Source of the DNA: a virus | Lineage: Duplodnaviria; Heunggongvirae; Uroviricota; Caudoviricetes | Reading direction: 5' to 3' (one strand) | IMG/VR virus record: IMGVR_UViG_3300042876_000208 | Coordinates: 1 to 64,000 of that record | DNA: 64,000 nucleotides | Shown: positions 5,548-23,615 of the stretch, piece after piece | How the letters are laid out: the number at the start of each line of letters is the position of its first letter | Numbering within the stretch: position 1 is the stretch's first letter | Notes under the pieces: generated by a model | The model's input: only the letters and a program-made list of their open reading frames with translations | Database searches by the model: none | What the model was told of the DNA's origin: nothing | Translations under genes and position numbers: made by a program

Positions 5548-6160
5548 CTTGTGGGGTTGCTGGCATATCTATCGGGGTAGCGGCCTGTTCTATTGGGGCA
5601 TTGACGGGATTAACTCTAGGCACACGCAGAGTAGCCGCCTCAGTACCACGCTGTGCTATAAGTCTATTCAGTTCATTAATAACTTCTGCTCTTGGCTCAT
5701 CATCCAAATTCTCAAGCACTTGAAAATCTATACCCAGCATCTCGTGTGCCATTGCCATCCAACCTGGGCGAGTATCTTCAACAAATCTATTCGGTTGTGG
5801 GATGTTAATACGAGCATTAGCTCTATCAGCCTCATCAATATTGAAGTCATGAGCCACTTCAGTCCAAGTGGGATTTATGGTAGTTCCAACTGTGGTGTAA
5901 GTTGAGCCATATCCACCAGAGACCTTGACCTCTTTTTCAGCGACTTTCTTGGGCTTTGGAACGTATTCGCTGATTTCAACGGTGACCGTGACTTTCAGGT
6001 TAAAGGTATAGCCACAGAATGGACATGTGGTTTTACCATCATAGTTGCTCTGGTTGATGATATACATCTGGGTTTTGCACTTAGCACAAATCACCGTGGG
6101 CGTTTCAGAACCTGACTTTACACTAGACTTTATCAGTAACATTATTCCTCCTTTACCCAA
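5480..6160 (-). CDS. zinc-ribbon protein with Arg-rich/Asn-Gly-rich tail
   Basis: CAKCKTQ...CPFCGY zinc ribbon near N-terminus; C-terminus PRRRRATNGGTNGNTNG; last gene of the ligase operon. Confidence 0.45.
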   Translation of the reverse strand: MGKGGIMLLIKSSVKSGSETPTVICAKCKTQMYIINQSNYDGKTTCPFCGYTFNLKVTVTVEISEYVPKPKKVAEKEVKVSGGYGSTYTTVGTTINPTWTEVAHDFNIDEADRANARINIPQPNRFVEDTRPGWMAMAHEMLGIDFQVLENLDDEPRAEVINELNRLIAQRGTEAATLRVPRVNPVNAPIEQAATPIDMPATPQVGEARPRRRRATNGGTNGNTNG

Positions 6161-6747
6161 TCACAAACGTAGTCAAAGAACTTTTGTCCAGCGGTCATAG
6201 TAGAGAATTCAGGATGGAATTGCGTGGTCAAAATCCTGTTATCCCGACTATAGGCTAGCTCAACAATACGGCTCTCTGGCTCAATAGCAAATGGTTCAAG
6301 ATGCTTAGAAATTTCGTCCGCAGTGTAACCTTGATGGTGCATACTATTCACATTATCAGTATAAATTTGTTGCACTGGAGTTTTCTTTAGCCACACAACC
6401 TCATGGTGGCTTGCATGGCCTGGACGAATGTCTTGAACAAGACCACCACCCAAGAGTGCATTGATAAGCTGGTGACCACGACATACACCCAGCATCTTGA
6501 GTTTCAGCCTTTGAGCATGACGGAATACTTCAAGTTCTACAGCATCCCTTTCCACTTCAATTCCTCTTGCACCATGAAAATCCTGGTTGTATAAGCGAGG
6601 TGAAATGTCTGCCCCGCCCGGAAAGATGACCAAATCCAATCTTGGCAGGATAGCCAAGTTCTTTCCAATTACAACCAGATTAGGAAAGTAAGACTTAAAG
6701 TGAGCAAAGAATGGGACTGTGGCAATCCCTACTTTTAGTTCGTCCAT
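6142..6747 (-). CDS. class-I glutamine amidotransferase / peptidase C26 (gamma-glutamyl hydrolase-like)
   Basis: GVCRGHQ nucleophile-Cys motif, HHQ, and QFHPE His/Glu motif; 201 aa. Confidence 0.7.
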   Translation of the reverse strand: MDELKVGIATVPFFAHFKSYFPNLVVIGKNLAILPRLDLVIFPGGADISPRLYNQDFHGARGIEVERDAVELEVFRHAQRLKLKMLGVCRGHQLINALLGGGLVQDIRPGHASHHEVVWLKKTPVQQIYTDNVNSMHHQGYTADEISKHLEPFAIEPESRIVELAYSRDNRILTTQFHPEFSTMTAGQKFFDYVCDWVKEE

Positions 6748-7668
6748 TTATACCTTGCTTTCAATGTAGGACAGGAGTTCAAGCGCCTTGGTTTGATTGC
6801 ACTGAGCGATGGCATCCGTCATTTCAACCTCAAGTTCTTTGCTGAACTTTTCAATTTTTTCAGGGAAATTGAGCAGGTTTTCAACCGAGAACTTGGCCCA
6901 GCGGAAAATTTCTTTTGGCAGGTCGGGATAGTCCGGGTTCGTCCAAGACGTGGAGGGTGTACGATATTCCACACCAACCAGATTCTTTCCGTTTACCTCA
7001 CCATACTTCTGAGGACGGAATTTACCAATGCGCCCATAGAGATAGGTGCGGAGACGTTCCAGTTCGGGGAATGGGGAATAAGCCGTAGCTGCAAGACCAA
7101 TGCCCATAGCGAACCCACGGATTGCTGTGCGTGGTGCAATCTCAAAGAGCGGGTGACCAGACCAGTGGATATGACCGCCAAAGTAGCGATACGGGTGAAT
7201 GGAGGCATCAATTTCTGGACTGGTATAGGATGTGTCGAAGGCATTTTCGTCCGGGTCACAGCCAAACATGTTAGCCATTTCCATCTCTGGCCCCATACTG
7301 TTCCAACGGTCAAAGTTGTATTTCAAGGTTGGGCGAACGACTGGCCCAATGGTATCGCTCGGGAACTTGGAGAGCATTTCCTTAAGTATCTCAAGACCAT
7401 TGTAAACCCGGCCAAGCAACTGTTCCCAATTTCCATTCGGAGCGGGTGGCACGGTGAATTCAAAGGCTGCACCATCTTCAATGATTTTGAGTTCCGGTGA
7501 CTCAAAGAACAGAGGGTGACGCGGGTGGTCAACAAATTTTATGCCACGAGCCAAGCGGAAGAATGCTGCCGGAATGACTTCCATATCACCGTGCATATCA
7601 ATAGCACCTGCGGCGTATTCTGGGTCACACCCAATGGTCAAATCTGAAAACTTAACATCGAAATTCAT
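6748..7668 (-). CDS. putative carboxylate-amine ligase (GCS2/COG2170-like amidoligase), divergent
   Basis: 306 aa; FGGHIHWSG HxH-G motif echoes the AIHFHVG motif of 13097..14233; directly coupled to GATase-I gene. Confidence 0.35.
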   Translation of the reverse strand: MNFDVKFSDLTIGCDPEYAAGAIDMHGDMEVIPAAFFRLARGIKFVDHPRHPLFFESPELKIIEDGAAFEFTVPPAPNGNWEQLLGRVYNGLEILKEMLSKFPSDTIGPVVRPTLKYNFDRWNSMGPEMEMANMFGCDPDENAFDTSYTSPEIDASIHPYRYFGGHIHWSGHPLFEIAPRTAIRGFAMGIGLAATAYSPFPELERLRTYLYGRIGKFRPQKYGEVNGKNLVGVEYRTPSTSWTNPDYPDLPKEIFRWAKFSVENLLNFPEKIEKFSKELEVEMTDAIAQCNQTKALELLSYIESKV

Positions 7669-7681
7669 ATAGAGCCTCCTT

Positions 7682-8101
7682 CTAAATTGAAATCTTTTTG
7701 TTCAGTAGAATTGAAAGAACAGCATTCTTGCGGCAAGACGGTGGAATAGTCTGGTCGGGTATTTTGAGCCAGCCCTCAAGACATTCCTTTCCAGCCAAGG
7801 GTGTATAGGCGGTGGACACCATATCTTCAATCTTGTGTTGATGACCACACACAAAGCACCCAGCACGAATTTGCTTGAAATCATCCTCAGTGATAAATTC
7901 CTTACCACACTTAGAGCAAAAGAATGTGATAGGATAATCTTCACCGGAATGTAATTCGCCACTCTCTGAGAGTGGTCGTGCCTCTGCCGCGCCGGGAATG
8001 AGAGTCTTTTCCTGAAACGTCCAGGTTAAGACACGCATCACCAAGCGAAAGCCCGAGATTACTGCACCACCACATTCACCTTCGTGGTAGAGTTGGCTCA
8101 T
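7682..8101 (-). CDS. zinc-ribbon protein
   Basis: CSKCGKEF ... CFVCGH pairs of CxxC. Confidence 0.4.
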   Translation of the reverse strand: MSQLYHEGECGGAVISGFRLVMRVLTWTFQEKTLIPGAAEARPLSESGELHSGEDYPITFFCSKCGKEFITEDDFKQIRAGCFVCGHQHKIEDMVSTAYTPLAGKECLEGWLKIPDQTIPPSCRKNAVLSILLNKKISI

Positions 8102-9108
8102 ATTGCACCTCCTTTTGGACTATTTCCTTCGGTAATTAAACTAATTGACAGTTGATTTGTTTCAAAGATATTTTCAAGGCTGTCCCTAAGAACCACAGTT
8201 ATAGCATCATAGACAACTATATGAACCATGCCATTCTGAATGTAAGCTGAAAAGATTGTATCTAACAGAGTATCAAGCTTAATCCTGTAGGTTTTCCTTG
8301 GGTCAAGTTTACTACTTTCCAACTTATCTTCATAAGCCTCTTTGCCTAATGCTGTTATACTCAGTAGGCTTATGGCATAATCCGTCGGTTCAGGCAAGAG
8401 TGGCATTTGCTTTTCTCCTGGGCGAAATTTATCCCGGTTACGTTCAGCATATTCCACAAGGTTAGTAATACAACCTTTACCATACCCACCCTCCACCGTA
8501 GTCCTTAGAGGATTTCCAGTAGGAACTTTCACAAACGAGATGCCGTTGGTTCCTGTGAATTGCTTGAGGTTGTGGTAGTTCACGGTTAATCCAGCAAGCA
8601 GTGCCTTGCCCGTATCGGTGATGCTCTTTGAGTCAGGGACTGGAAAGCATTGGTTAGCTGCAACATTGCAAGCCGTTGCAATCCACCCTTCAAAGTCAAA
8701 AGAGTAGACTTGATTACGCTCAGATAAGAATAGGCTTGGCCCTTTGGTATCAGGGGCGAAAGAGAACATGAAATCCTTCGCGGTAAGTTTTTTCTTTAGC
8801 CTAAAGTCCACAAGGCAGGGAACATCGAGGTCGGCTACAGTATAGAGCCAATCCATATTCTCTGGATATTTGAGAAAACCATCCAAGAGAGTATCATCGG
8901 TTGCCCTGAGAGAGCCAATATTGAGAACGTCAAGAGTACTAGGCTTGGTGACTTCAAGTTGAATTACACATTCAGCGGTTTCGGGATAAAACCTGCCGGG
9001 GAAAATAATTGTTCCCATTTCATCTTCCAACTTGCCAACCATTCTAACCAGACACTTATCGTCATTGCGTTTATCCATGACTCTTCGATTAATTACATAA
9101 TCTGTCAT
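8098..9108 (-). CDS. hypothetical protein (336 aa) inside ligase operon
   Basis: Long uninterrupted ORF, overlapping stop/start with both neighbours; no motif recognised. Confidence 0.45.
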   Translation of the reverse strand: MTDYVINRRVMDKRNDDKCLVRMVGKLEDEMGTIIFPGRFYPETAECVIQLEVTKPSTLDVLNIGSLRATDDTLLDGFLKYPENMDWLYTVADLDVPCLVDFRLKKKLTAKDFMFSFAPDTKGPSLFLSERNQVYSFDFEGWIATACNVAANQCFPVPDSKSITDTGKALLAGLTVNYHNLKQFTGTNGISFVKVPTGNPLRTTVEGGYGKGCITNLVEYAERNRDKFRPGEKQMPLLPEPTDYAISLLSITALGKEAYEDKLESSKLDPRKTYRIKLDTLLDTIFSAYIQNGMVHIVVYDAITVVLRDSLENIFETNQLSISLITEGNSPKGGAI

Positions 9109-9878
9109 ACCAAACTCCTTCCCGCTCGCCCAATTTGGATGAGCCTTTTGTGAAGTAGAACGGGTTCTACCTGATAGAGTAGTAACCCCTTGTTCATATG
9201 TAAATATCCTGCAAGTGTGTCCAACGAAGCCCTACCACCAAGAGCAGAGAGTGCATCTAAATACCTTGTGCCGTTGGCATCAATGCCATCCTGAATACCA
9301 AAGAACTCTTTTAGAACTCTGGTAATACTATCAGGAACACCATTTCGTTTGATGTATAGAGATAATCGTTTAGCCAGAGACGCTATAACTCTTGGATTTT
9401 CTAGACCTGCATTGACAATCTCCGGATAGAATTCCTCCGGTAGGTCTATAGATACATCCATATAGCTTTTAGTTATTTCAATCAAATCTCCCATCGAGTA
9501 TGGTTCAAAGGTCAATGGCACACACCTGTTGATTAGTGGTTCTAGCAAACCATCCAGTTCATTGGTTGCCATAAATACTACAAACCTGTTACTATCTAGA
9601 GTGTGGTAAAGCGTCTCCGGGTCTTGTAGCTTATGTACCTCATCTATAAAGTGAACCCTAAAGTCTTCATTGAAGGATATTCTACCATCCCTTGGCACAC
9701 TGATTTCAAAGTCACCATTCGGACACAGATAGTTGCAAGATAGCAGGGCTAACCTAGTTTTCCCCCATCCAGAAGGGCCATTAAGTAGGATGTTTAATGC
9801 CTCAGTGGTATGTTCAAGCAGGTTCGGCAAGAACAATCCCAATTGACGCATTAAAGCTGGTTGTCCCTGAAAATACAT
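9105..9878 (-). CDS. RuvB-like AAA+ ATPase (short form)
   Basis: FQGQ..LMRQLGLFL (RuvB FIGQ..VKEQL-like), Walker A GPSGWGKT, Walker B HFIDEVH, C-terminal winged-helix-like GGRASLDTLAGYL...EPVLLHKRLIQIGRAGR (RuvB EPYLIQ.GF..RTPRGR-like). Confidence 0.55.
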   Translation of the reverse strand: MYFQGQPALMRQLGLFLPNLLEHTTEALNILLNGPSGWGKTRLALLSCNYLCPNGDFEISVPRDGRISFNEDFRVHFIDEVHKLQDPETLYHTLDSNRFVVFMATNELDGLLEPLINRCVPLTFEPYSMGDLIEITKSYMDVSIDLPEEFYPEIVNAGLENPRVIASLAKRLSLYIKRNGVPDSITRVLKEFFGIQDGIDANGTRYLDALSALGGRASLDTLAGYLHMNKGLLLYQVEPVLLHKRLIQIGRAGRSLV

Positions 9879-10687
9879 TACAACTCCAAGGCGGTGCGAA
9901 GATAGTCTACATATGTCCGGGCGGTATCGGCATTGTTTGTCAAAGCTGGGGCGGTGTTTATTTCAATCAGTCGAAAACCACCGATAGCCTCTTCAAACGC
10001 TACATCAATCCTGGCCATCTTGACCGGAACAATGGCATAGAGTCTGTGAACAAAATCGCGGAGTTCGGCAATGCGTCCAAAGCCTTCATTTGAAATTCTT
10101 TTGAAGGAATAACCCATATCCTGATTACGGATTGGGAACTCAGGCTCATTATTGGCATCATTGTCCCAGACCTTTTTGAAAATCTTGGCAACCTCACCTC
10201 CGAGAATATGCACACCATATTCATAACGGAATGTATACCAAGGACTCCAATAGCTTTCACGGTGTGCAGAGAATTCTTCTGGGGTACGGGCAATGATAAT
10301 TCCCGCCCCGCCATGCCCATTCAGGACGGTACGAATACACACCGGGTATTGAGTCGGAGTACCGCGACGAAATTCAACTACAGGAAAGTCACGGTCAACA
10401 AGCTTGGTAGCCAGTCGGGTTTTGCTCCCACAAAGACTAATCACCGCAGGGGAATTGAACACGGTGTCACGACCCGCAAAGCGTTCACTACCTGCGGATG
10501 AACCCCAGCGAATTGTAGGAGGCTCATTGGTAGTGGTATAGCGAGTACCCATACCAAGTCCTTCAGCAAGGATACGTGCAGACCCAATCAAGGTATCACT
10601 AGTAAGAATGTAGGACATTCTAATTACCTCCATAAAGGAACAAATCTTCATTTGGAAAAAGATGCTGATAACTTTTGTTCTCAGCAA
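9878..10687 (-). CDS. ATP-grasp family ligase (RimK/glutathione-synthetase-like)
   Basis: 269 aa; CIRTVLNGHGGAGIIIA Gly-rich ATP-grasp loop, downstream acidic/Asn metal-binding region (IEINTAP). Confidence 0.55.
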   Translation of the reverse strand: MLRTKVISIFFQMKICSFMEVIRMSYILTSDTLIGSARILAEGLGMGTRYTTTNEPPTIRWGSSAGSERFAGRDTVFNSPAVISLCGSKTRLATKLVDRDFPVVEFRRGTPTQYPVCIRTVLNGHGGAGIIIARTPEEFSAHRESYWSPWYTFRYEYGVHILGGEVAKIFKKVWDNDANNEPEFPIRNQDMGYSFKRISNEGFGRIAELRDFVHRLYAIVPVKMARIDVAFEEAIGGFRLIEINTAPALTNNADTARTYVDYLRTALEL

Positions 10688-10937
10688 ATTTGGAAGAAAT
10701 ACGCACTTTGTCTACAATTAGACTATAGGCAGTGATAATCTCAAAGACATCCAAGATAGGAACATTTTTCAATACAAGAATGAGTATGCCATTTGCTTCC
10801 CTTGTATAGTTATCAGGATATTTCTTAACGAGGTCTATAATTAATCCCACACCTCGCTGCATAATCAATCTCGTAGAGATAGCCAGTGTCACCTCTTTTT
10901 TATCTCTGTAGATAGGTGAAAGAACTAAGTCAGACAT
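10620..10937 (-). CDS. hypothetical protein
   Basis: 105-aa ORF between the two ATP-grasp genes. Confidence 0.3.
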   Translation of the reverse strand: MSDLVLSPIYRDKKEVTLAISTRLIMQRGVGLIIDLVKKYPDNYTREANGILILVLKNVPILDVFEIITAYSLIVDKVRISSKFAENKSYQHLFPNEDLFLYGGN

Positions 10938-10947
10938 AAAGTATCAA

Positions 10948-11874
10948 TTATCCTCCAAAAGCTACCGACCACAGATATTTTGCGATACGGTAATGAATGT
11001 TCCAAGGGCCATCTTCGCCCAATGAGGCTTTGGCAAGGCGTTCATGCCGAAGTAGAGAACAAGCAGTGTTAATCTCACTCATAACAAACTTTCGGTGCGT
11101 AGTTTGGAAGATGTCGATGAAAGAGATTTTAGCGCCCACAAGTTGCTGAGCTTTAACCGCCAGGTTCAAGAGAATTTCCGGCGGTGTGGGCATGAACTGC
11201 ATGGTGTCGGATAAACACACAGACACTTTCCACTCATCGGGGTGGAACTCAGGTTTGTCCACAAAGCCATATGGAAGGGCCTCCCCATTGATAACCACGA
11301 TGCGGTACAGAGCATCATATTCAATGTATTCTTGCAGGACAAAGCGGTTGCCTAAACCATTGGCCAGGGTGGACATGGGAACAATTTCTTCTGTTCCGGT
11401 TTTCTTCCAACCACTTTCCACTTTGGTAAGCCGAAGGACACGAGCGCCCTGTTCCATGCTGGTGATGGGTTTGATAATGTAATTCCCATTTGGTACAACT
11501 GGAATATCATCAACCCGGACACTCCAAGTGCGTGGGTGTGCAATGGTTTCCTGCAATAAGAGAGAGCAAGCAAGCTTGTCGGACGTAAGCCGTAGAGCTG
11601 AAGGCTTGTTGACAATCTTAAATCCACGCCTCTCCATATCGAAGAGTGTTCCCATCCACCCGTTTTCAGACGGGTTTGCCGCACGAGCGTGTACCACAGT
11701 GTTCGCTGGGGTGAGTTCGGTATGGCGTTCAAAGAATTCCGACAACTCTGATACACGGATTACGTGTGTGTGAATGTCAGTCTTATGCTTCTTCCCGGCA
11801 ATCCACATGATAGACCGTGCAATTACGCGGCTGTAATCACCGCCAGTTTCGGTTCGTACAATAACAAAATTCAT
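10948..11874 (-). CDS. ATP-grasp family ligase (second copy)
   Basis: 308 aa; FVLQEYIEY and EINTA motifs typical of RimK-like ATP-grasp. Confidence 0.5.
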   Translation of the reverse strand: MNFVIVRTETGGDYSRVIARSIMWIAGKKHKTDIHTHVIRVSELSEFFERHTELTPANTVVHARAANPSENGWMGTLFDMERRGFKIVNKPSALRLTSDKLACSLLLQETIAHPRTWSVRVDDIPVVPNGNYIIKPITSMEQGARVLRLTKVESGWKKTGTEEIVPMSTLANGLGNRFVLQEYIEYDALYRIVVINGEALPYGFVDKPEFHPDEWKVSVCLSDTMQFMPTPPEILLNLAVKAQQLVGAKISFIDIFQTTHRKFVMSEINTACSLLRHERLAKASLGEDGPWNIHYRIAKYLWSVAFGG

Positions 11875-11883
11875 CGCTCCTCC

Positions 11884-13089
11884 TTAATGATACTGAAATT
11901 TTTTGATGGCACGTTCAATCTCATTGAAATTAGTACCCAGTCCCAAGGGGAATTGAATCTCCTTAGAATAGATACCAATTGGAATAACCGCGAACTTCTT
12001 TCGTTCTACCTCATCACGAACGGATTTTCTGCTACCAAGTCCACCGACAGCGTATTTCAAGAACAAGTCGATTTGCTTTTCTTCAAGACTCAAGAGAGGC
12101 TTGTTGAACAGAACAATGAATATAGCATCCATGTCTGCAACACTCAACCTCTCCCTCTCACGGAATTCAGCCACCCGAGTAATCTTTTGCCAAAGACCCT
12201 CCTGTGGACTAGTCCCCGAAGTATCCCCCGCGCCGTAACCAGTATTCCTCGTCGTCTGAGAGTTCACGGAGTGGACTTGTCCCTGACTGTATGACGTTTG
12301 ATACGTTTTTGCTGGTAAAGGGTTTTCGGGGCATTTCCCTACCTCCGTTAGAGTTAACCCATCGACTCTGTAGATGGTTTCCTTTTCGAGTTCTTTGACT
12401 TCCTTATCAAAGTCTATTTGAGGACTGCCGAGTAACTGGGCAATATTGGAAATGCTCAGTTGTTCATCGGATAGTGTGCCCTTTTCTGTATTGACGATAA
12501 ACCCATACGGAACTTTGTCCTTCGAGAGATGAACAATATGCAAATCGGCAGTACGTCCTCGACACACATAGAACTTGGACTCTCTGCGAACATAGATAAC
12601 CATTGCATACTTGCCCTTGCATCCGGCCATACAATTGTTGAAGGCGAGGACAAAATCCGGCTCGATTTTCAATTCCGCAGTGAGCATTTCAGCAAAGCGC
12701 TTGCTATCCGAGGGGCGGCTTTCTTCCGTTGTACTGGTTGTGGTGTTGGTATCCTTTAGCTCATCTTCAAACCAAAGAGTACCATTGTGAACGAGAACGA
12801 GTTCATCCGTCTGAAAGGGATGTACATTTTCCTCAGTTACCACAATATTCTTGCTTGCCCTGCGAACATGCGATACAATGGGATTTACCCCAAAGCCATA
12901 GTCGCTGATTAAACCACCAATGTCGCATAGTTCGCTGGCTGCGAATTTGGTTTTGAAGATACCTGACTTAGGTGAGAAAAACCCCCAACCATCCTTGTGC
13001 AGGTAGCGTGAATTCTTTGTTGCTGTTACAAGTAGTGCGGCTTTGTTAAACCGCTCAGACCGTGAGGCGATAAGTGTTATTTGGCACAT
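11884..13089 (-). CDS. class-II (Ntn) glutamine amidotransferase-like protein
   Basis: Begins Met-Cys (MCQITLIAS), the N-terminal nucleophile arrangement of GATase-II/Ntn hydrolases; 401 aa. Confidence 0.5.
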   Translation of the reverse strand: MCQITLIASRSERFNKAALLVTATKNSRYLHKDGWGFFSPKSGIFKTKFAASELCDIGGLISDYGFGVNPIVSHVRRASKNIVVTEENVHPFQTDELVLVHNGTLWFEDELKDTNTTTSTTEESRPSDSKRFAEMLTAELKIEPDFVLAFNNCMAGCKGKYAMVIYVRRESKFYVCRGRTADLHIVHLSKDKVPYGFIVNTEKGTLSDEQLSISNIAQLLGSPQIDFDKEVKELEKETIYRVDGLTLTEVGKCPENPLPAKTYQTSYSQGQVHSVNSQTTRNTGYGAGDTSGTSPQEGLWQKITRVAEFRERERLSVADMDAIFIVLFNKPLLSLEEKQIDLFLKYAVGGLGSRKSVRDEVERKKFAVIPIGIYSKEIQFPLGLGTNFNEIERAIKKFQYH

Positions 13090-13096
13090 ATTACTC

Positions 13097-14233
13097 CTAA
13101 CGATTGATTACGTGACTGAATTGGATATTGTGTACAGAGGCTTGGTGTGAGTCCAAGAAACCAGAATCTTTCAAATCTCTGGCATTTACCTTACGCCGGG
13201 GTTTATCATCCCCAGTATAGTAGAAATCTTCTTGGACATACTTATCCCAAAGGTGGGATTTTATCTCACCCTCTGGTAAGACAAATTTAGGCGCTGTACA
13301 TAAGAGTTCCCTTAGTAGGGTCTTGTACTTGGGCTGCATAGGATATGTATCAGAGAACTCATCCAAGAGTGCAAAGAGAACCTCAAGCAACTGACAATCA
13401 TCGTTGCTCTTGGTCACAGGTGCAAATGGCAGCTCTTCCAAGCGTCTCAATGGCACTTTGGTCAGCATTTCGGCTGTGCTTTGACACAGACGCATGTTAG
13501 CCAAGAACAACTGAGAGTTGACGGTGAAATTGAAATGTCTGAACTCTAATGTGCCGTGTAGTAAGATGCTCAGCAGGTTCACCCCAAAATAGCGCGATGG
13601 GTGATACCGCTTCGGTTCACGCTGACTTACACCATAAGCACGCCAGAATTCATCCACGGTTTCGGATGTTATCAGTTGCTCGTAAGAGAGTACCGGGCGA
13701 TAGTTTCCATCTTCACAACGAACAATCGGGGGCGCGGTGTGTGGTCTGCAATAAATAGCATTGTTGCTATCGCCTCTGAATGTATAGCCCATAGTCCCGA
13801 GCTGATACATGAGGCTTTCAAACTTAGCAGAGAATGTTACCGCCGATAGCAGGCTACCAAGTGAATGGGGGAAACCTACGTGGAAGTGAATGGCATTGCG
13901 AGTACCTTTCTCCAATTCACCTTCACGGTCTAGTTCACCAAGCAAGAGCGGAAAGATACGTTCAGCATCCCTAAAGTACATGGGTACTGAAATCAATTCA
14001 ACTCCCGTGGTGACTTGAGTTAAACTACGACCACTTTTAGTCAACAGATTGAAGGGGTCGATGAAATAGAGTTTGTCTGTAAGCCGCTTCAAAAAGGTTT
14101 CGGAGGATGCATCCCTATCCTTTTTAAACCAATCAAGTATCCCAAGAGTTCCTGCTCTCTCAACGAAGCGTGTGGGGATAACATTTGTGGTTTCTATTTC
14201 AGCGGCTACAGTATCAAGAATTAAACCTTGCAT
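13097..14233 (-). CDS. carboxylate-amine ligase (GCS2/COG2170 family amidoligase)
   Basis: 378 aa; AIHFHVGFP motif comparable to YbdK-type HVHVG; Glu/Arg-rich catalytic core. Confidence 0.45.
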   Translation of the reverse strand: MQGLILDTVAAEIETTNVIPTRFVERAGTLGILDWFKKDRDASSETFLKRLTDKLYFIDPFNLLTKSGRSLTQVTTGVELISVPMYFRDAERIFPLLLGELDREGELEKGTRNAIHFHVGFPHSLGSLLSAVTFSAKFESLMYQLGTMGYTFRGDSNNAIYCRPHTAPPIVRCEDGNYRPVLSYEQLITSETVDEFWRAYGVSQREPKRYHPSRYFGVNLLSILLHGTLEFRHFNFTVNSQLFLANMRLCQSTAEMLTKVPLRRLEELPFAPVTKSNDDCQLLEVLFALLDEFSDTYPMQPKYKTLLRELLCTAPKFVLPEGEIKSHLWDKYVQEDFYYTGDDKPRRKVNARDLKDSGFLDSHQASVHNIQFSHVINR

Positions 14234-14241
14234 AGTTTTTC

Positions 14242-14685
14242 CTAGAACTGGTAAACGTCATTGACAGAGTATACAAATCCAAGTTGAGTTTTATTCTCAC
14301 GGAAATTCTGGCAAAGACGCCAGATGGTTTCAATGAGGTTATTCTTAACCTGCTCTGCATTAGGAACTGAGTAGTGGCACATAATGTTATCCATGTTTCT
14401 ATCCAGTCCTTGAATATAGACCACGGTTCTATCCCCGAGCGCTGGGGTATTATTCACCTTGACCGTGCCTCCGGTGTCCTCGCAAGAGAACGTGAGTTCA
14501 TTAACACGGAGAGCGTCGTGTTGAGATAACACCCTGAAATAAATCACATCACGGTCAACACACATCATAAACGTAATGAGTGCTTCCGTCTCAGGGACAA
14601 TCGGTGGCTTTCCTACCGGGTATCGGAACATATTACCTCCTACGAGAACAAAGTAGTGAACTTCTTGATTGAATAAGCATCCCAC
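14242..14685 (-). CDS. hypothetical protein (true start probably internal Met)
   Basis: 147-aa ORF overlapping next gene by 46 nt; internal MFRYPVGK start likely. Confidence 0.35.
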   Translation of the reverse strand: MGCLFNQEVHYFVLVGGNMFRYPVGKPPIVPETEALITFMMCVDRDVIYFRVLSQHDALRVNELTFSCEDTGGTVKVNNTPALGDRTVVYIQGLDRNMDNIMCHYSVPNAEQVKNNLIETIWRLCQNFRENKTQLGFVYSVNDVYQF

Positions 14686-15245
14686 ATACGTTCAGGATGC
14701 CATTGAACTGCAAAGATATTTGCATCGACCGAGATGGCTTCAACAAGGCCTGACTCTTCAGAGTTAGCCTCAACCCTAACACCGTTACCTAAACGAGCAA
14801 TTCCCTGGTGGTGGAAAGAGTTTGTACGAAACACGCTCCTATCCCGTGTAGTAACACGGTGAACCAAATCAGTCTCGTGCTGAGAGTAGGGATGGTCAAC
14901 AAGGTCTTGACGCAGAGTTCCACCAAAGAACACATTCAACGCCTGCAACCCTCGACAAATCCCAAAGATTGGAAGCTTTGCTTCAACGAACAAAGGTAAA
15001 ACGTGGTCGTCAAAGTATTCCAGGTACGTGTTGGGTTTAGATGTTCGATACTCAGGCCATTGACCATACTTACCGGGATAAATATCTGCACCACCGGGAA
15101 GAACAATTCCGTACAAGAACTTGAGGGGTTCTTCCAAGGACGGGGTTACAATTACGGGTGTTCCAACCTGTTCAATCCAATACAGGTAGTTTGTGTGAAC
15201 ACCAAACACACCATCTGTTTCCGAGCCAGGAATTCCAATTCGCAT
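14640..15245 (-). CDS. class-I glutamine amidotransferase / peptidase C26 (second copy)
   Basis: GICRGLQ nucleophile motif, HHQ, WHPE; 201 aa; first gene of operon. Confidence 0.7.
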   Translation of the reverse strand: MRIGIPGSETDGVFGVHTNYLYWIEQVGTPVIVTPSLEEPLKFLYGIVLPGGADIYPGKYGQWPEYRTSKPNTYLEYFDDHVLPLFVEAKLPIFGICRGLQALNVFFGGTLRQDLVDHPYSQHETDLVHRVTTRDRSVFRTNSFHHQGIARLGNGVRVEANSEESGLVEAISVDANIFAVQWHPERMWDAYSIKKFTTLFS

Positions 15246-17341: not shown

Positions 17342-17499
17342 ACCTTCTCCTGCTATAACTTCATTACGGACATTGCCGTAATACATCATTCGCATCAGAG
17401 CTGTACTACTTATACTACTCAGGGTTTAGAACACTCTATTTTTACTTTCGCGGGTCGCTAAATCCGCTGTGGAAGAATGTTCAAGAGAACCACCAGAGT

Positions 17500-17571
17500 G
17501 CCCTCGCAGGGAATCGAACCCTGATTGCCAATTTAGAAGATTGGAGCTTCTATCCATTGAGCTACGAGGGC
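17500..17571 (-). tRNA. tRNA-Arg (anticodon UCU)
   Basis: Hand-folded: acceptor GCCCTCG/CGAGGGC, D-arm, anticodon stem CCAAT/ATTGG with loop CTTCTAA (UCU), T-arm CAGGG-TTCGATT-CCCTG; 72 nt, no encoded CCA. Confidence 0.7.
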
Positions 17572-21283: not shown

Positions 21284-22042
21284 TTAGGCCTCCTTGTGGA
21301 ACAGGAAAAGCTTACCATCATTGCTCTCGAAATGCTTCTTTATTTCAGGATTGCTCATAGCATGCCAACCGGAGTCCACGTTATAAAACACGCAAATAAT
21401 ATCATCGTCTGCGGTATTGATTACATTCTTGAAAAATGCTTCCATACCATCTGGGCGGGTCATCGGATTATAGGCATAAATAAGATTGTAGCTCTTGAAA
21501 TCCCAGGTTGTAATATCACCCTGTTTCACGTTAATTGTTCTTCTTAATGCTTTAGCCGGAGAAACTAGGAACGGATTATATTCCACACCCTCCCAGATAT
21601 TAGCGGTAGTCTTGAACACACAATCAAAGAATGTCTGAGCAAGTAAAACCTTATCGCCCATGCCTGAGCCTGCATCTACAAAACGAATGGTATCAGTTTT
21701 AGTTCTAAGCAGTTTAGTCGCTTTGTGCATAGTAAAAATAAACTCATCTGACCAAAGAGGAATGTAAGGATAGGCATCAAACCCACTGGGCGGGTTTTCA
21801 GCGTCTTTACCAAATTTTTTGCACTCAAAAATAGACTCACTGAGATTAAGCCGTTTCTCAAGTACATACATAACTCTTGGTGGAAGATAGTTATCTGGGT
21901 TATCATCCAAGTATTTCAGGACACCTTGGCAGATAAGCGGGGTTGGAATAATATTGAGAATAGGTGAGTCCGATTCTGAACTCACTAGCAACTTGAGTGC
22001 CTCAGAAGCGGTTTCTGGAAAATCAAATATTACTTGTTTCAT
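21284..22042 (-). CDS. putative class-I SAM-dependent methyltransferase
   Basis: FVDAGSGMGDKVL resembles MTase motif I; start moved to internal Met (perfect AAGGAG RBS 7 nt upstream), which avoids overlap with the tRNA-like element. Confidence 0.4.
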   Translation of the reverse strand: MKQVIFDFPETASEALKLLVSSESDSPILNIIPTPLICQGVLKYLDDNPDNYLPPRVMYVLEKRLNLSESIFECKKFGKDAENPPSGFDAYPYIPLWSDEFIFTMHKATKLLRTKTDTIRFVDAGSGMGDKVLLAQTFFDCVFKTTANIWEGVEYNPFLVSPAKALRRTINVKQGDITTWDFKSYNLIYAYNPMTRPDGMEAFFKNVINTADDDIICVFYNVDSGWHAMSNPEIKKHFESNDGKLFLFHKEA

Positions 22043-22074
22043 TTCAGTCTCCTTTTTGAATTGTATGAAACAGA

Positions 22075-22140
22075 AGCACCGATGGGATTTGAACCCATGC
22101 ACAGCGTATCCGCTTGCTCTACCAACTGAGCTACGGTGCT
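22075..22140 (-). other. tRNA-like element with truncated anticodon arm (66 nt)
   Basis: Perfect acceptor AGCACCG/CGGTGCT, canonical U8 and D-arm GCTCAGTTGGTAGAGC, canonical T-arm ATGGG-TTCAAAT-CCCAT, but only 16 nt (AGCG-GATA-CGCT-GTGC) where the anticodon arm plus variable loop (~22 nt) should be. Confidence 0.45.
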
Positions 22141-22156
22141 TGCCTACTACATGGAG

Positions 22157-22694: not shown

Positions 22695-23615
22695 CTAGGG
22701 CTGGGGAACGGGCACGATGTTAGTGCCTGTGGTATTAAAGAACTGGGTCAAGTCGGTTCCTTCGGGGATGAAGTAAACCGTTCCTGTACCGAACATACGC
22801 TGGATGAGTTCCAGGCGCTTGAGTTCAAATGCCTGCGGGTTATCGGTGTAGACCTGCTGGGCGGCGGCAACTTTCTTGCCTTCACGCTGGGCGATTTCAA
22901 CATCAATAGCGGTTTGAGCTTTCTGCACGTCGAGCTGCTTTTCCAAGACGGTCTTGCTCTTTTCGGCCTGCAAGATGTCATTGGCAGCCTGTTGATTAAT
23001 CAACGACTGCCTTTGAACCTCAACTTCGGTATTGACACGCAGCAAGGCTTTGTCGTTCAAAGCTTTCATGTATTCAGCAGACGGGGCAACGTTTTCAATG
23101 GTCACATTGATGATTTCTGCAGAATATTTTTCAGAGTCTTGCTCAAGCTGGTCTTTGATGTTATTGGCCAGACCATTGCGGTCATCAAGCAACTTGTCCA
23201 GGGTGAATGAACGAACGCCATTCTTCATGCCCTCACGAGCGGTAGCGGCCACCGTGTTCACAAAGTTACCATCATCAGTCAATGTAGACCAATTCGTCAT
23301 CAAGTTCATGACGGAGTCCTTGTCGGACTTGCGGCGAGCCTGGATGGTCACTTTCAAGCCAATCGCCTGATTATCCGAGGTAAGCACCTCGGGGTCTTCA
23401 ACGCTGAACGTAAGTGCATCCACGTTGATGACCTTGATTTCAGCGAGAGCGCCACCGCTGTACATGCCTGGGCCAACCACGTTCACAATCTTGTTGGACT
23501 CCATTTGCACGGCCACCTGGTTCGGGTTAACGTCCGCGTTCCAGTAACAACCGCTGGTGATGAGGGTGAACAAAACGAGCAATACTGTCAAAAGCGATAA
23601 CTTACTGAATTTCAT
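22695..23615 (-). CDS. SPFH/band-7 (stomatin/prohibitin/HflKC-like) lipoprotein
   Basis: Lipobox LITSGC; central SPFH-like core followed by long Ala/Gln/Glu-rich coiled coil (QRQSLINQQAANDILQAEKSKTVLEKQLDVQKAQTAIDVEIAQREGKK); GC-rich. Confidence 0.6.
   Translation of the reverse strand: MKFSKLSLLTVLLVLFTLITSGCYWNADVNPNQVAVQMESNKIVNVVGPGMYSGGALAEIKVINVDALTFSVEDPEVLTSDNQAIGLKVTIQARRKSDKDSVMNLMTNWSTLTDDGNFVNTVAATAREGMKNGVRSFTLDKLLDDRNGLANNIKDQLEQDSEKYSAEIINVTIENVAPSAEYMKALNDKALLRVNTEVEVQRQSLINQQAANDILQAEKSKTVLEKQLDVQKAQTAIDVEIAQREGKKVAAAQQVYTDNPQAFELKRLELIQRMFGTGTVYFIPEGTDLTQFFNTTGTNIVPVPQP

Follow-up and report, generated by a model that had tools for sequence, protein, structure and literature searches.

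The window analyzed here comprises the first 64,000 nucleotides (nt) of the IMG/VR virus record IMGVR_UViG_3300042876_000208. Its minus strand carries, between two open reading frames (ORFs), a gene shaped like a transfer RNA (tRNA) in which a mini-hairpin takes the place of the anticodon arm. The window belongs to a tailed phage, with a tape-measure protein, tightly packed genes and nearly all long ORFs on the minus strand. The phage is uncultivated and has a genome of ~93.5 kb, 83 kb of which were examined by joining the window to two flanking loci. A preliminary description had placed an anticodon-less tRNA-like RNA at 22075-22140; the location was right, whereas the discriminator base had been left out (Table 1).

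Read directly in standard tRNA numbering, the body of this element is flawless. The acceptor stem (7 bp), the D-stem (4 bp) and the T-stem (5 bp) contain zero mismatches, and all core tRNA bases are present: U8-A14, G15-C48, G18 and G19 facing U55 and C56, U54-A58, G53-C61, A9, G46, and A26 opposite G44. The anticodon arm is the only abnormal part, consisting of 12 nt (a 4-bp stem closed by a GAUA loop) instead of the normal 17 nt. Together with the 4-nt variable loop, this hairpin sets the D- and T-domains exactly 16 nt apart, A26 being counted separately. Sequence, Rfam alignment and predicted fold thus bear out the preliminary description in every detail of the acceptor pairing, U8, the D-arm and the T-arm, and likewise its 16-nt spacing and its 4-bp stem with GAUA loop. 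The discriminator is followed by C in the element as in all six canonical tRNA genes of the same phage, and then by unrelated sequence; the full CCA is encoded by none of them.

The element scored 53.3 bits against the Rfam tRNA family RF00005 (gathering threshold 29, E=1.3e-8), aligning to model positions 1-71, where 4 nt stand in for nine positions of the anticodon arm. ARAGORN, which demands a proper anticodon arm, called tRNA-Arg(UCU) at 17498-17571 as the only tRNA of the window and did not call the element. Hence, neither tool folded it as an ordinary tRNA of 72-76 nt, Rfam skipping the anticodon arm. In the minimum free energy (MFE) structure (-26.4 kcal/mol, z=-3.16), the element forms a cloverleaf with a 4-bp/4-nt mini-arm; 1 of 200 shuffled sequences equaled this energy, and the cloverleaf was kept when the element was folded within 156-181 nt of its mRNA context. 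The anticodon-less tRNA-shaped gene is real and was correctly described. It is tRNA-derived, yet not a tRNA, because it passes the Rfam tRNA threshold and fails in the defining feature, the anticodon arm. The encoded RNA cannot decode any codon, since its 4-nt loop lacks U33 and has no way of presenting an anticodon.

Two more independent assemblies, reached through a neighboring protein and derived from separate sequencing runs (Logan SRR24010765, a 93.5-kb contig, and SRR26046407), hold the element base for base and do not differ from the window at any of the 20,759 positions compared. As three independent assemblies agree, the sequence is not an assembly error; they are silent on selection because the flanking ~20 kb are also 100% identical. 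Two further readings, an artefact of sequencing or assembly and a working tRNA that decodes through an unusual loop, would draw on the general possibility of indel errors, but given this identity, a loop that presents no anticodon and the rejection by ARAGORN, we find either barely credible.

Table 1. Positions of the element, its parts and its neighbors in the window, and of short-armed tRNA-like sequences in other viral contigs.
Feature	Position	Strand	Remarks
Whole tRNA-like gene	22074..22140	-	67 nt including discriminator U73; Rfam RF00005, sequence, MFE cloverleaf
Element read 5' to 3'	22140 to 22074	-	AGCACCG-UA-GCUC-AGUUGGUA-GAGC-A-AGCG-GAUA-CGCU-GUGC-AUGGG-UUCAAAU-CCCAU-CGGUGCU-U
Acceptor stem, 5' strand, AGCACCG (1-7)	22134..22140	-	Pairs perfectly with 22075-22081; U8 and A9 at 22133-22132
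D-arm, GCUC-AGUUGGUA-GAGC	22116..22131	-	A14, G15, G18, G19, A21; all conserved D-loop bases present by direct reading
A26	22115	-	Directly before the mini-hairpin
Mini-hairpin, AGCG-GAUA-CGCU	22103..22114	-	In place of the 17-nt anticodon arm (Rfam alignment, fold); without U33 and anticodon
Stretch across the mini-arm			GAGCAAGCGGATACGCTGTGCATGGGTTC
Variable loop, GUGC	22099..22102	-	G44, U45, G46, C48 by direct reading; C48 can make the Levitt pair with G15
T-arm, AUGGG-UUCAAAU-CCCAU	22082..22098	-	U54, U55, C56, A58, G53-C61
Acceptor stem, 3' strand, CGGUGCU (66-72)	22075..22081	-	Discriminator U at 22074, then C, then UG; CCA not encoded
5' leader, 16 nt	22141..22156	-	From upstream stop to element; contains CUCC 22156-22153
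3' trailer, 31 nt	22043..22073	-	Shine-Dalgarno AAGGAG 22054-22049 of the downstream gene
Upstream ORF, 105 aa	22157..22474	-	Stop TAG 22159-22157; no homologue besides itself
Downstream ORF, 252 aa (P0001)	21284..22042	-	ATG at 22042; VDAGSG motif
SPFH/Band-7 gene	22695..23615	-	550 nt upstream of the element
Mini-hairpin tRNA-likes, 67 nt	L010 3311-3377; L012 11274-11340; L016 1678-1744		
tRNA-likes without any anticodon arm, 58-63 nt	L004 1218-1280; L005 12856-12913 = L006 1356-1413; L008		L008: 59 nt

Neither a promoter-like nor a terminator-like site was found on the minus strand near the element, and therefore it is probably co-transcribed with its neighbors, like other phage tRNAs. A homologue search with the upstream ORF of 105 amino acids (aa) gave the ORF itself alone. 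The downstream ORF of 252 aa probably encodes an S-adenosylmethionine (SAM)-dependent methyltransferase, judging from its sequence. Its VDAGSG motif is typical of SAM-binding motif I, and a distant homologue of 45% identity (P0003) has Methyltransf_31/25 Pfam matches; a Pfam search with the window protein itself gave no match.

Of the six canonical tRNA genes of the 83 kb, Arg-UCU lies on the main strand, and the opposite arm carries Ile-UAU, Asn-GUU, Trp-CCA, Gln-CUG and Ser-GCU; none is a paralogue of the element. Beyond the start of the window (L155, 17143-20535) and ~30 kb from the element, five canonical tRNAs of the phage flank a 472-aa DUF2828/DUF7788 vWA-type protein, for which no sequence match to Ro60 was found in the PDB. 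In the related locus L021 a member of the same family adjoins an RNA-ligase-like gene. Among the Pfam-annotated genes of the 83 kb, where the structural half (~28-62 kb) is partly covered, there is no Ro60/TROVE, RNA ligase, CCA-adding or tRNA-modification gene.

Searches of GenBank phages with the locus and with the element (megablast, blastn) and with the downstream ORF (tblastn) returned no match. The SPFH/Band-7 gene upstream of the element has more than 200 homologues, many on contigs of 60-100 kb (46-76% identity across the loci L019-L041), and these homologues therefore define a clade of related phages. In IMG/VR, searched via the flanking proteins, no close relative was found, the SPFH alignment yielding three loci at ~40% identity. 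The closest relative is L019, with 74-76% aa identity in SPFH. Its gene order (SPFH, a homologous 75-aa ORF, an 81-aa ORF, an intact tRNA-Arg(UCU) and a 196-aa ORF) bears a superficial likeness to that of the window (SPFH, a 76-aa ORF, the 105-aa ORF, the element and the 252-aa ORF). An intact tRNA at the same position in relatives, which the preliminary description had named as evidence against its view, was strictly speaking not found: the L019 tRNA-Arg stands at a similar place, but we rejected it as an occupant of the element's position, its DNA flanks and both neighboring ORFs being unrelated. If it is the counterpart of anything, it matches the window's own tRNA-Arg.

The distance from the SPFH/75-76-aa pair to an amidoligase cluster is 8 kb in the window versus 3.5 kb in L019, with zero homologous genes common to the two intervals; the stretch holding the element is a hypervariable accessory region. 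The cluster itself (6142-15245, minus strand), which is kept in the relatives L019 and L021, is a peptide/amide-ligase system. It comprises two Peptidase_C26/GATase genes, Amidoligase_2, a class-II GATase, a phiEco32-like COOH-NH2 ligase and a RuvB-like AAA+ protein, together with weak ATP-grasp matches (RimK-like, D-Ala-D-Ala ligase-like).

Just downstream of SPFH, the loci of this clade carry between 1 and 14 Rfam tRNA matches each (14 in L032; 12 and a transfer-messenger RNA (tmRNA) in L037). Rfam searches of L019-L023 and fifteen loci from the Joint Genome Institute (JGI) gave 42 tRNA matches and one tmRNA, all tRNA matches being at least 71 nt long; the IMG/VR relatives L024-L026 were covered by ARAGORN and the cloverleaf scan described below. 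A match in the tRNA cluster of one relative (L039, 702-822; 43.8 bits) is 121 nt long, far above the normal length, and may contain an intron or insertion. In no relative was a full-length tRNA with the acceptor and T-arm sequences of the element found. The element is absent from L019-L023, L027-L041, L003 and L052, the nearest of which is already distant (74% aa identity in SPFH) at a locus that is hypervariable. In three homologues of the downstream gene, the place directly upstream is taken by an ORF or a terminator hairpin, and a tRNA-like element is lacking. Exact-pattern scans for a homologue of the element in IMG/VR and in one genome per GTDB species found none, and its 5' half recovered from IMG/VR and the GTDB genomes ordinary G1 tRNAs only (Met, Phe, Thr, Asn), none with the element's T-arm. 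The collections searched hold no relative at a useful divergence and, on available data, the element is unique to one phage.

The origin of the short arm was approached by simulating every contiguous 5-nt deletion in a set of 506 real anticodon arms, which came from phage contigs totaling 1.4 Mb. A clean 4-bp/4-nt hairpin was left by 47.5% of the deletions, because any deletion confined to positions 31-39 leaves such a hairpin. Re-insertion of 5 nt into the element can yield 388 different 17-nt arms that combine a 5-bp stem with U33 and a purine at position 37 (R37); when one reconstruction was made for each of the 28 possible anticodons, ARAGORN called a normal tRNA in 28 of 28. One small deletion is sufficient, and the tidy hairpin is therefore unremarkable. 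The preliminary description had held the conserved parts to be too well preserved for a decayed pseudogene; since a single recent 5-nt deletion is enough and conservation is lacking, this argument is not supported.

On balance we lean, with modest confidence, towards a tRNA gene that lies in a fast-evolving accessory region, lost its function through a 5-nt deletion and is probably still processed. A phage tRNA gene would have lost 5 nt of its anticodon arm, among them some or all of the anticodon, and with them the ability to decode, while the features addressed by the maturation enzymes (the acceptor/T-arm stack, the G18G19/U55C56 elbow and the D-arm) were retained. RNase P and RNase Z read the G19-C56 elbow and measure along the acceptor/T stack, the anticodon loop being irrelevant, and this explains why mascRNA, the tRNA-like RNA from the MALAT1 3' end, undergoes processing and CCA tailing (PMC11693755). 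As everything that these enzymes read is intact in the element, its RNA would presumably be cut out of the polycistronic transcript by RNase P and 3' processing and then be CCA-tailed. The product would be a stable non-decoding tRNA-like RNA of ~70 nt, accumulating whether or not it is useful, and the short arm would be a recent accident in a region of fast turnover rather than a selected design. We lean this way because there is no conservation, the relatives, the downstream-gene homologues, IMG/VR and GTDB all lacking the element, and because the clade gains and loses tRNA genes freely, as the variable load per locus and the six canonical genes of this phage illustrate. There is no evidence that the short form is under selection.

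Several observations weigh against such an accident. The GAUA loop limits one-step ancestors to two uncommon loop types: an NNG anticodon followed by A37-U38, with U31-A39 (Gln, His, Arg, Leu or Pro), or A32-U33-A34 (effectively Arg-ACG). A loop ending in GAU is present in just 3 of 591 sampled phage tRNAs (His, Gln and Leu, one each), in none of them with A39, and not one of the simulated deletions in the 506 arms produced a GAUA loop. A loop type of this kind does exist, though it is uncommon: E. coli tRNA-Gln(UUG) reads ...U-UUUUGAU-A.... An intact ancestor or paralogue was not found in the phage's own genome or elsewhere in the sequences searched. Phage genomes are compact and tend to shed useless DNA. 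The perfection of all stem pairs and tertiary bases outside the arm suits a very recent deletion and selection equally well, and the occurrence of the same allele in at least three samples is uninformative either way, the 20-kb flanks being identical. With regard to isotype, a His ancestor deduced from body similarity was rejected, as the same D-arm/T-loop body belongs mostly to Lys, Thr and Tyr tRNAs in IMG/VR viral contigs. The GAU-A loop remnant is the sole hint and points to Gln, His or Arg, and the ancestor was probably a tRNA of one of these types.

Short-armed tRNA bodies were then sought independently of sequence. A strict cloverleaf scan of 1.4 Mb of phage DNA recovered 326 bodies versus 0 in shuffled DNA; in 304 of the 326, the D- and T-stems are separated by the normal 22-23 nt. 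Among ~310 bodies in loci not picked for short arms, no short arm was found, the apparent cases being normal tRNAs with a mis-registered D-stem. The exact body of the element occurs in IMG/VR in 102 copies of normal length and 0 short ones. A looser short-gap pattern returned 14 sequences from IMG/VR contigs, about half of them with an intact acceptor stem and Rfam tRNA scores of 44-50 bits. The bodies listed in Table 1 resemble the element in their intact acceptor, D- and T-arms, with a gap of 8-17 nt between the D- and T-stems. They are, however, not sequence homologues, and most lie in tRNA/tmRNA arrays or by GOLLD RNA, whereas the element stands alone between two protein genes. The L005/L006 sequence adjoins a permuted alpha-tmRNA, that of L012 lies between a tmRNA and a tRNA, and that of L010 inside tRNA arrays. 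Truncated tRNA bodies thus recur but are rare, well below 1%, which is as expected from sporadic decay and leaves room for occasional co-option.

Two of these sequences deserve separate mention. Those of L005 and L008 have a common linker, TT(G)TATGTC, and acceptor and T stems that differ with compensation; a search for further members of this arm-less type found none. The L008 sequence (IMG/VR UViG_2523533542_000003, 6773-7223) has perfect acceptor, D- and T-arms and begins 3 nt past a full-length GOLLD RNA (263 bits), an RNA known near phage tRNA islands (PMC12286853). By analogy with MALAT1 and mascRNA, whose layout it recalls, RNase P may define the GOLLD 3' end there.

The alternative to an accident is a selected non-decoding tRNA mimic, whether processing signal or decoy; the two taken together are a possibility that we take seriously but doubt. 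In the first form, the body would have been kept or co-opted for RNase P and 3' processing and would cut the polycistronic mRNA between the two ORFs, as mascRNA does at the 3' end of MALAT1. Cleavage would part the leader CUCC from the downstream Shine-Dalgarno (SD) sequence GGAG and so permit translation. The position between two ORFs, with a 16-nt leader, a 31-nt trailer and no promoter or terminator of its own, is consistent with this, as are the intact elbow and acceptor/T stack, which are recognized by RNase P and RNase Z without an anticodon loop (PMC11693755). The mascRNA family is also the sole other Rfam family that picks up the element, at a sub-threshold level (27.4 versus 42.5 bits, E=0.0016), and the arm-less tRNA-like sequence 3 nt after GOLLD in L008 offers a comparable layout. 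As long as the transcript is unprocessed, the leader CUCC (22156-22153) and the SD GGAG (22052-22049) form a predicted helix (pairing probability ~0.97-0.99); once leader and element are removed, the SD is predicted to open (probability unpaired 0.53-0.80). This masking is marginal, however, as 10 of 200 shuffled leaders left the SD as closed (p ~0.05) and a 4-nt anti-SD arises easily by chance; termination at the adjacent stop codon would in any case bring in a ribosome that opens the CUCC/SD helix. Furthermore, any intact tRNA would be equally good, so the short arm is left unexplained, and the pairing of gene and element is not conserved, there being homologues of the downstream gene without it. 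We take the modeled leader/SD pairing as only a hint of an effect in cis and regard a selected processing module as unlikely.

In the second form, the mimic would act in trans: a stable, CCA-tailed, anticodon-less body might soak up or divert a host factor that reads the elbow or the acceptor end, for instance an acceptor-end-modifying toxin or defense enzyme, a modification enzyme, or an elbow-binding RNA or protein. That the acceptor, D-arm, T-arm and tertiary pairs are perfect and the decoding part alone is gone would suit such a role, as would the recurrence of intact bodies with a short or missing anticodon arm in unrelated viral contigs (L004, L005/L006, L008, L010, L012, L016), usually in tRNA/tmRNA clusters. 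The phage moreover invests in tRNAs, with its six canonical genes, and phage tRNAs have a known part in countering tRNA-targeting defenses (PMC10264068, PMC11464382). Against it stands the absence of conservation, of covariation and, among the Pfam-annotated genes of the 83 kb with the structural half of the window partly covered, of a partner gene (Ro60/TROVE, RNA ligase or tRNA enzyme). The other short tRNA-like sequences are not homologous, the search for more of one type came back empty, and such elements make up well below 1% of tRNA bodies. One version, the decoy for a host anticodon nuclease put forward in the preliminary description, fails on first principles and is the least likely of the roles proposed there: anticodon nucleases such as PrrC and the colicins E5 and D recognize the anticodon loop, which is missing here. 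Overall, a mimic acting in trans appears quite improbable.

The preliminary description had also considered a recombination site. Integration commonly targets tRNA genes and pervasively leaves partial tRNA copies behind (PMC9897764), so that the element might be a phage attachment site (attP) or a tRNA-gene fragment left by integration. Such remnants keep the 5' or the 3' part only, however, whereas the element has both ends, minus 5 internal nt; no integrase domain was found in the gene tables for ~40 kb around it or in the other ORFs scanned, and the minus-strand arrangement of nearly all long ORFs is that of lytic phages. With both tRNA halves present, an origin of this kind is very improbable.

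If the element is merely a disabled tRNA gene, as we prefer to think, it matters mainly for annotation: covariance models score it at 53 bits as a confident tRNA, and pipelines that rely on them could therefore count a non-decoding gene as a tRNA. It would then also offer a momentary view of how tRNA genes turn over in a little-known clade of ~90-kb phages. It is conceivable, although we rate the chance as rather low, that the phage deliberately makes an anticodon-less tRNA body, RNase P-processed and CCA-tailed, as a cis-acting switch that unmasks a ribosome-binding site or as a trans-acting elbow or acceptor-end decoy. In that case, the element would join a scattered, undescribed class of arm-less tRNA mimics in phage tRNA/tmRNA/GOLLD clusters. 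A selected short form would be a bacterial-virus counterpart of mascRNA-type tRNA mimicry and, at 67 nt and one locus, a simple experimental handle on what a phage gains from a tRNA body apart from decoding. This benefit is a live question, as phage tRNAs are known to counter tRNA-targeting defenses.

Among known systems, canonical phage tRNAs (RF00005) share with the element the 7-bp acceptor stem, U8 and A9, the 4-bp D-stem with a AGUUGGUA loop, the 5-bp T-stem with a UUCAAAU loop and the tertiary bases, as well as the polycistronic early or accessory setting, the C after the discriminator and the lack of an encoded CCA. They differ in their 17-nt anticodon arm, where the element has 12 nt (4 bp and GAUA), neither U33 nor anticodon, and no ARAGORN call. 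The tRNA pseudogenes and partial tRNA genes of prokaryotes and phages (PMC9897764) are likewise tRNA-derived, non-decoding, lineage-specific and unconserved, but the partial genes are mostly terminal truncations from integration, whereas the element shows an internal loss of 5 nt in a flawless body. No described phage RNA of this architecture was found in the literature. A tmRNA tRNA-like domain was rejected, there being no tmRNA match in the window.

The YrlA RNAs, which are Y RNAs of bacteria and phages, mimic tRNA and bind Ro60; they are non-decoding, have tRNA-like D- and T-arms and are substrates of tRNA enzymes (PMC4201824). In YrlA, a long stem that binds Ro60 is built from the 5' and 3' ends, and the gene adjoins a Ro60/TROVE gene, whereas the ends of the element form a plain 7-bp acceptor stem, which leader and trailer extend by a weak 5 bp after a 2-nt bulge. 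Identity with a Ro60-associated Y RNA was rejected: YrlA gave no match at E<=1, there is no TROVE among the annotated genes of the 83 kb, in which the structural half of the window is partly covered, and DUF2828 has no sequence link to Ro60.

With mascRNA and menRNA (RF01684), the element shares the tRNA-like L-shape and a compact loop in the place of the anticodon loop, and it scores 27.4 bits with this family, under the threshold of 42.5. mascRNA is not aminoacylated and is recognized through its elbow (PMC11693755). These vertebrate RNAs lie at the 3' end of a long non-coding RNA, MALAT1 or MEN-beta, from which RNase P and RNase Z cut them, whereas the element has a phage ORF on either side; in mascRNA the D-arm is reduced and the stem in the anticodon position is longer, whereas the D-arm of the element is complete. 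The element is an analogue of mascRNA and menRNA, not a homologue or a member of their family.

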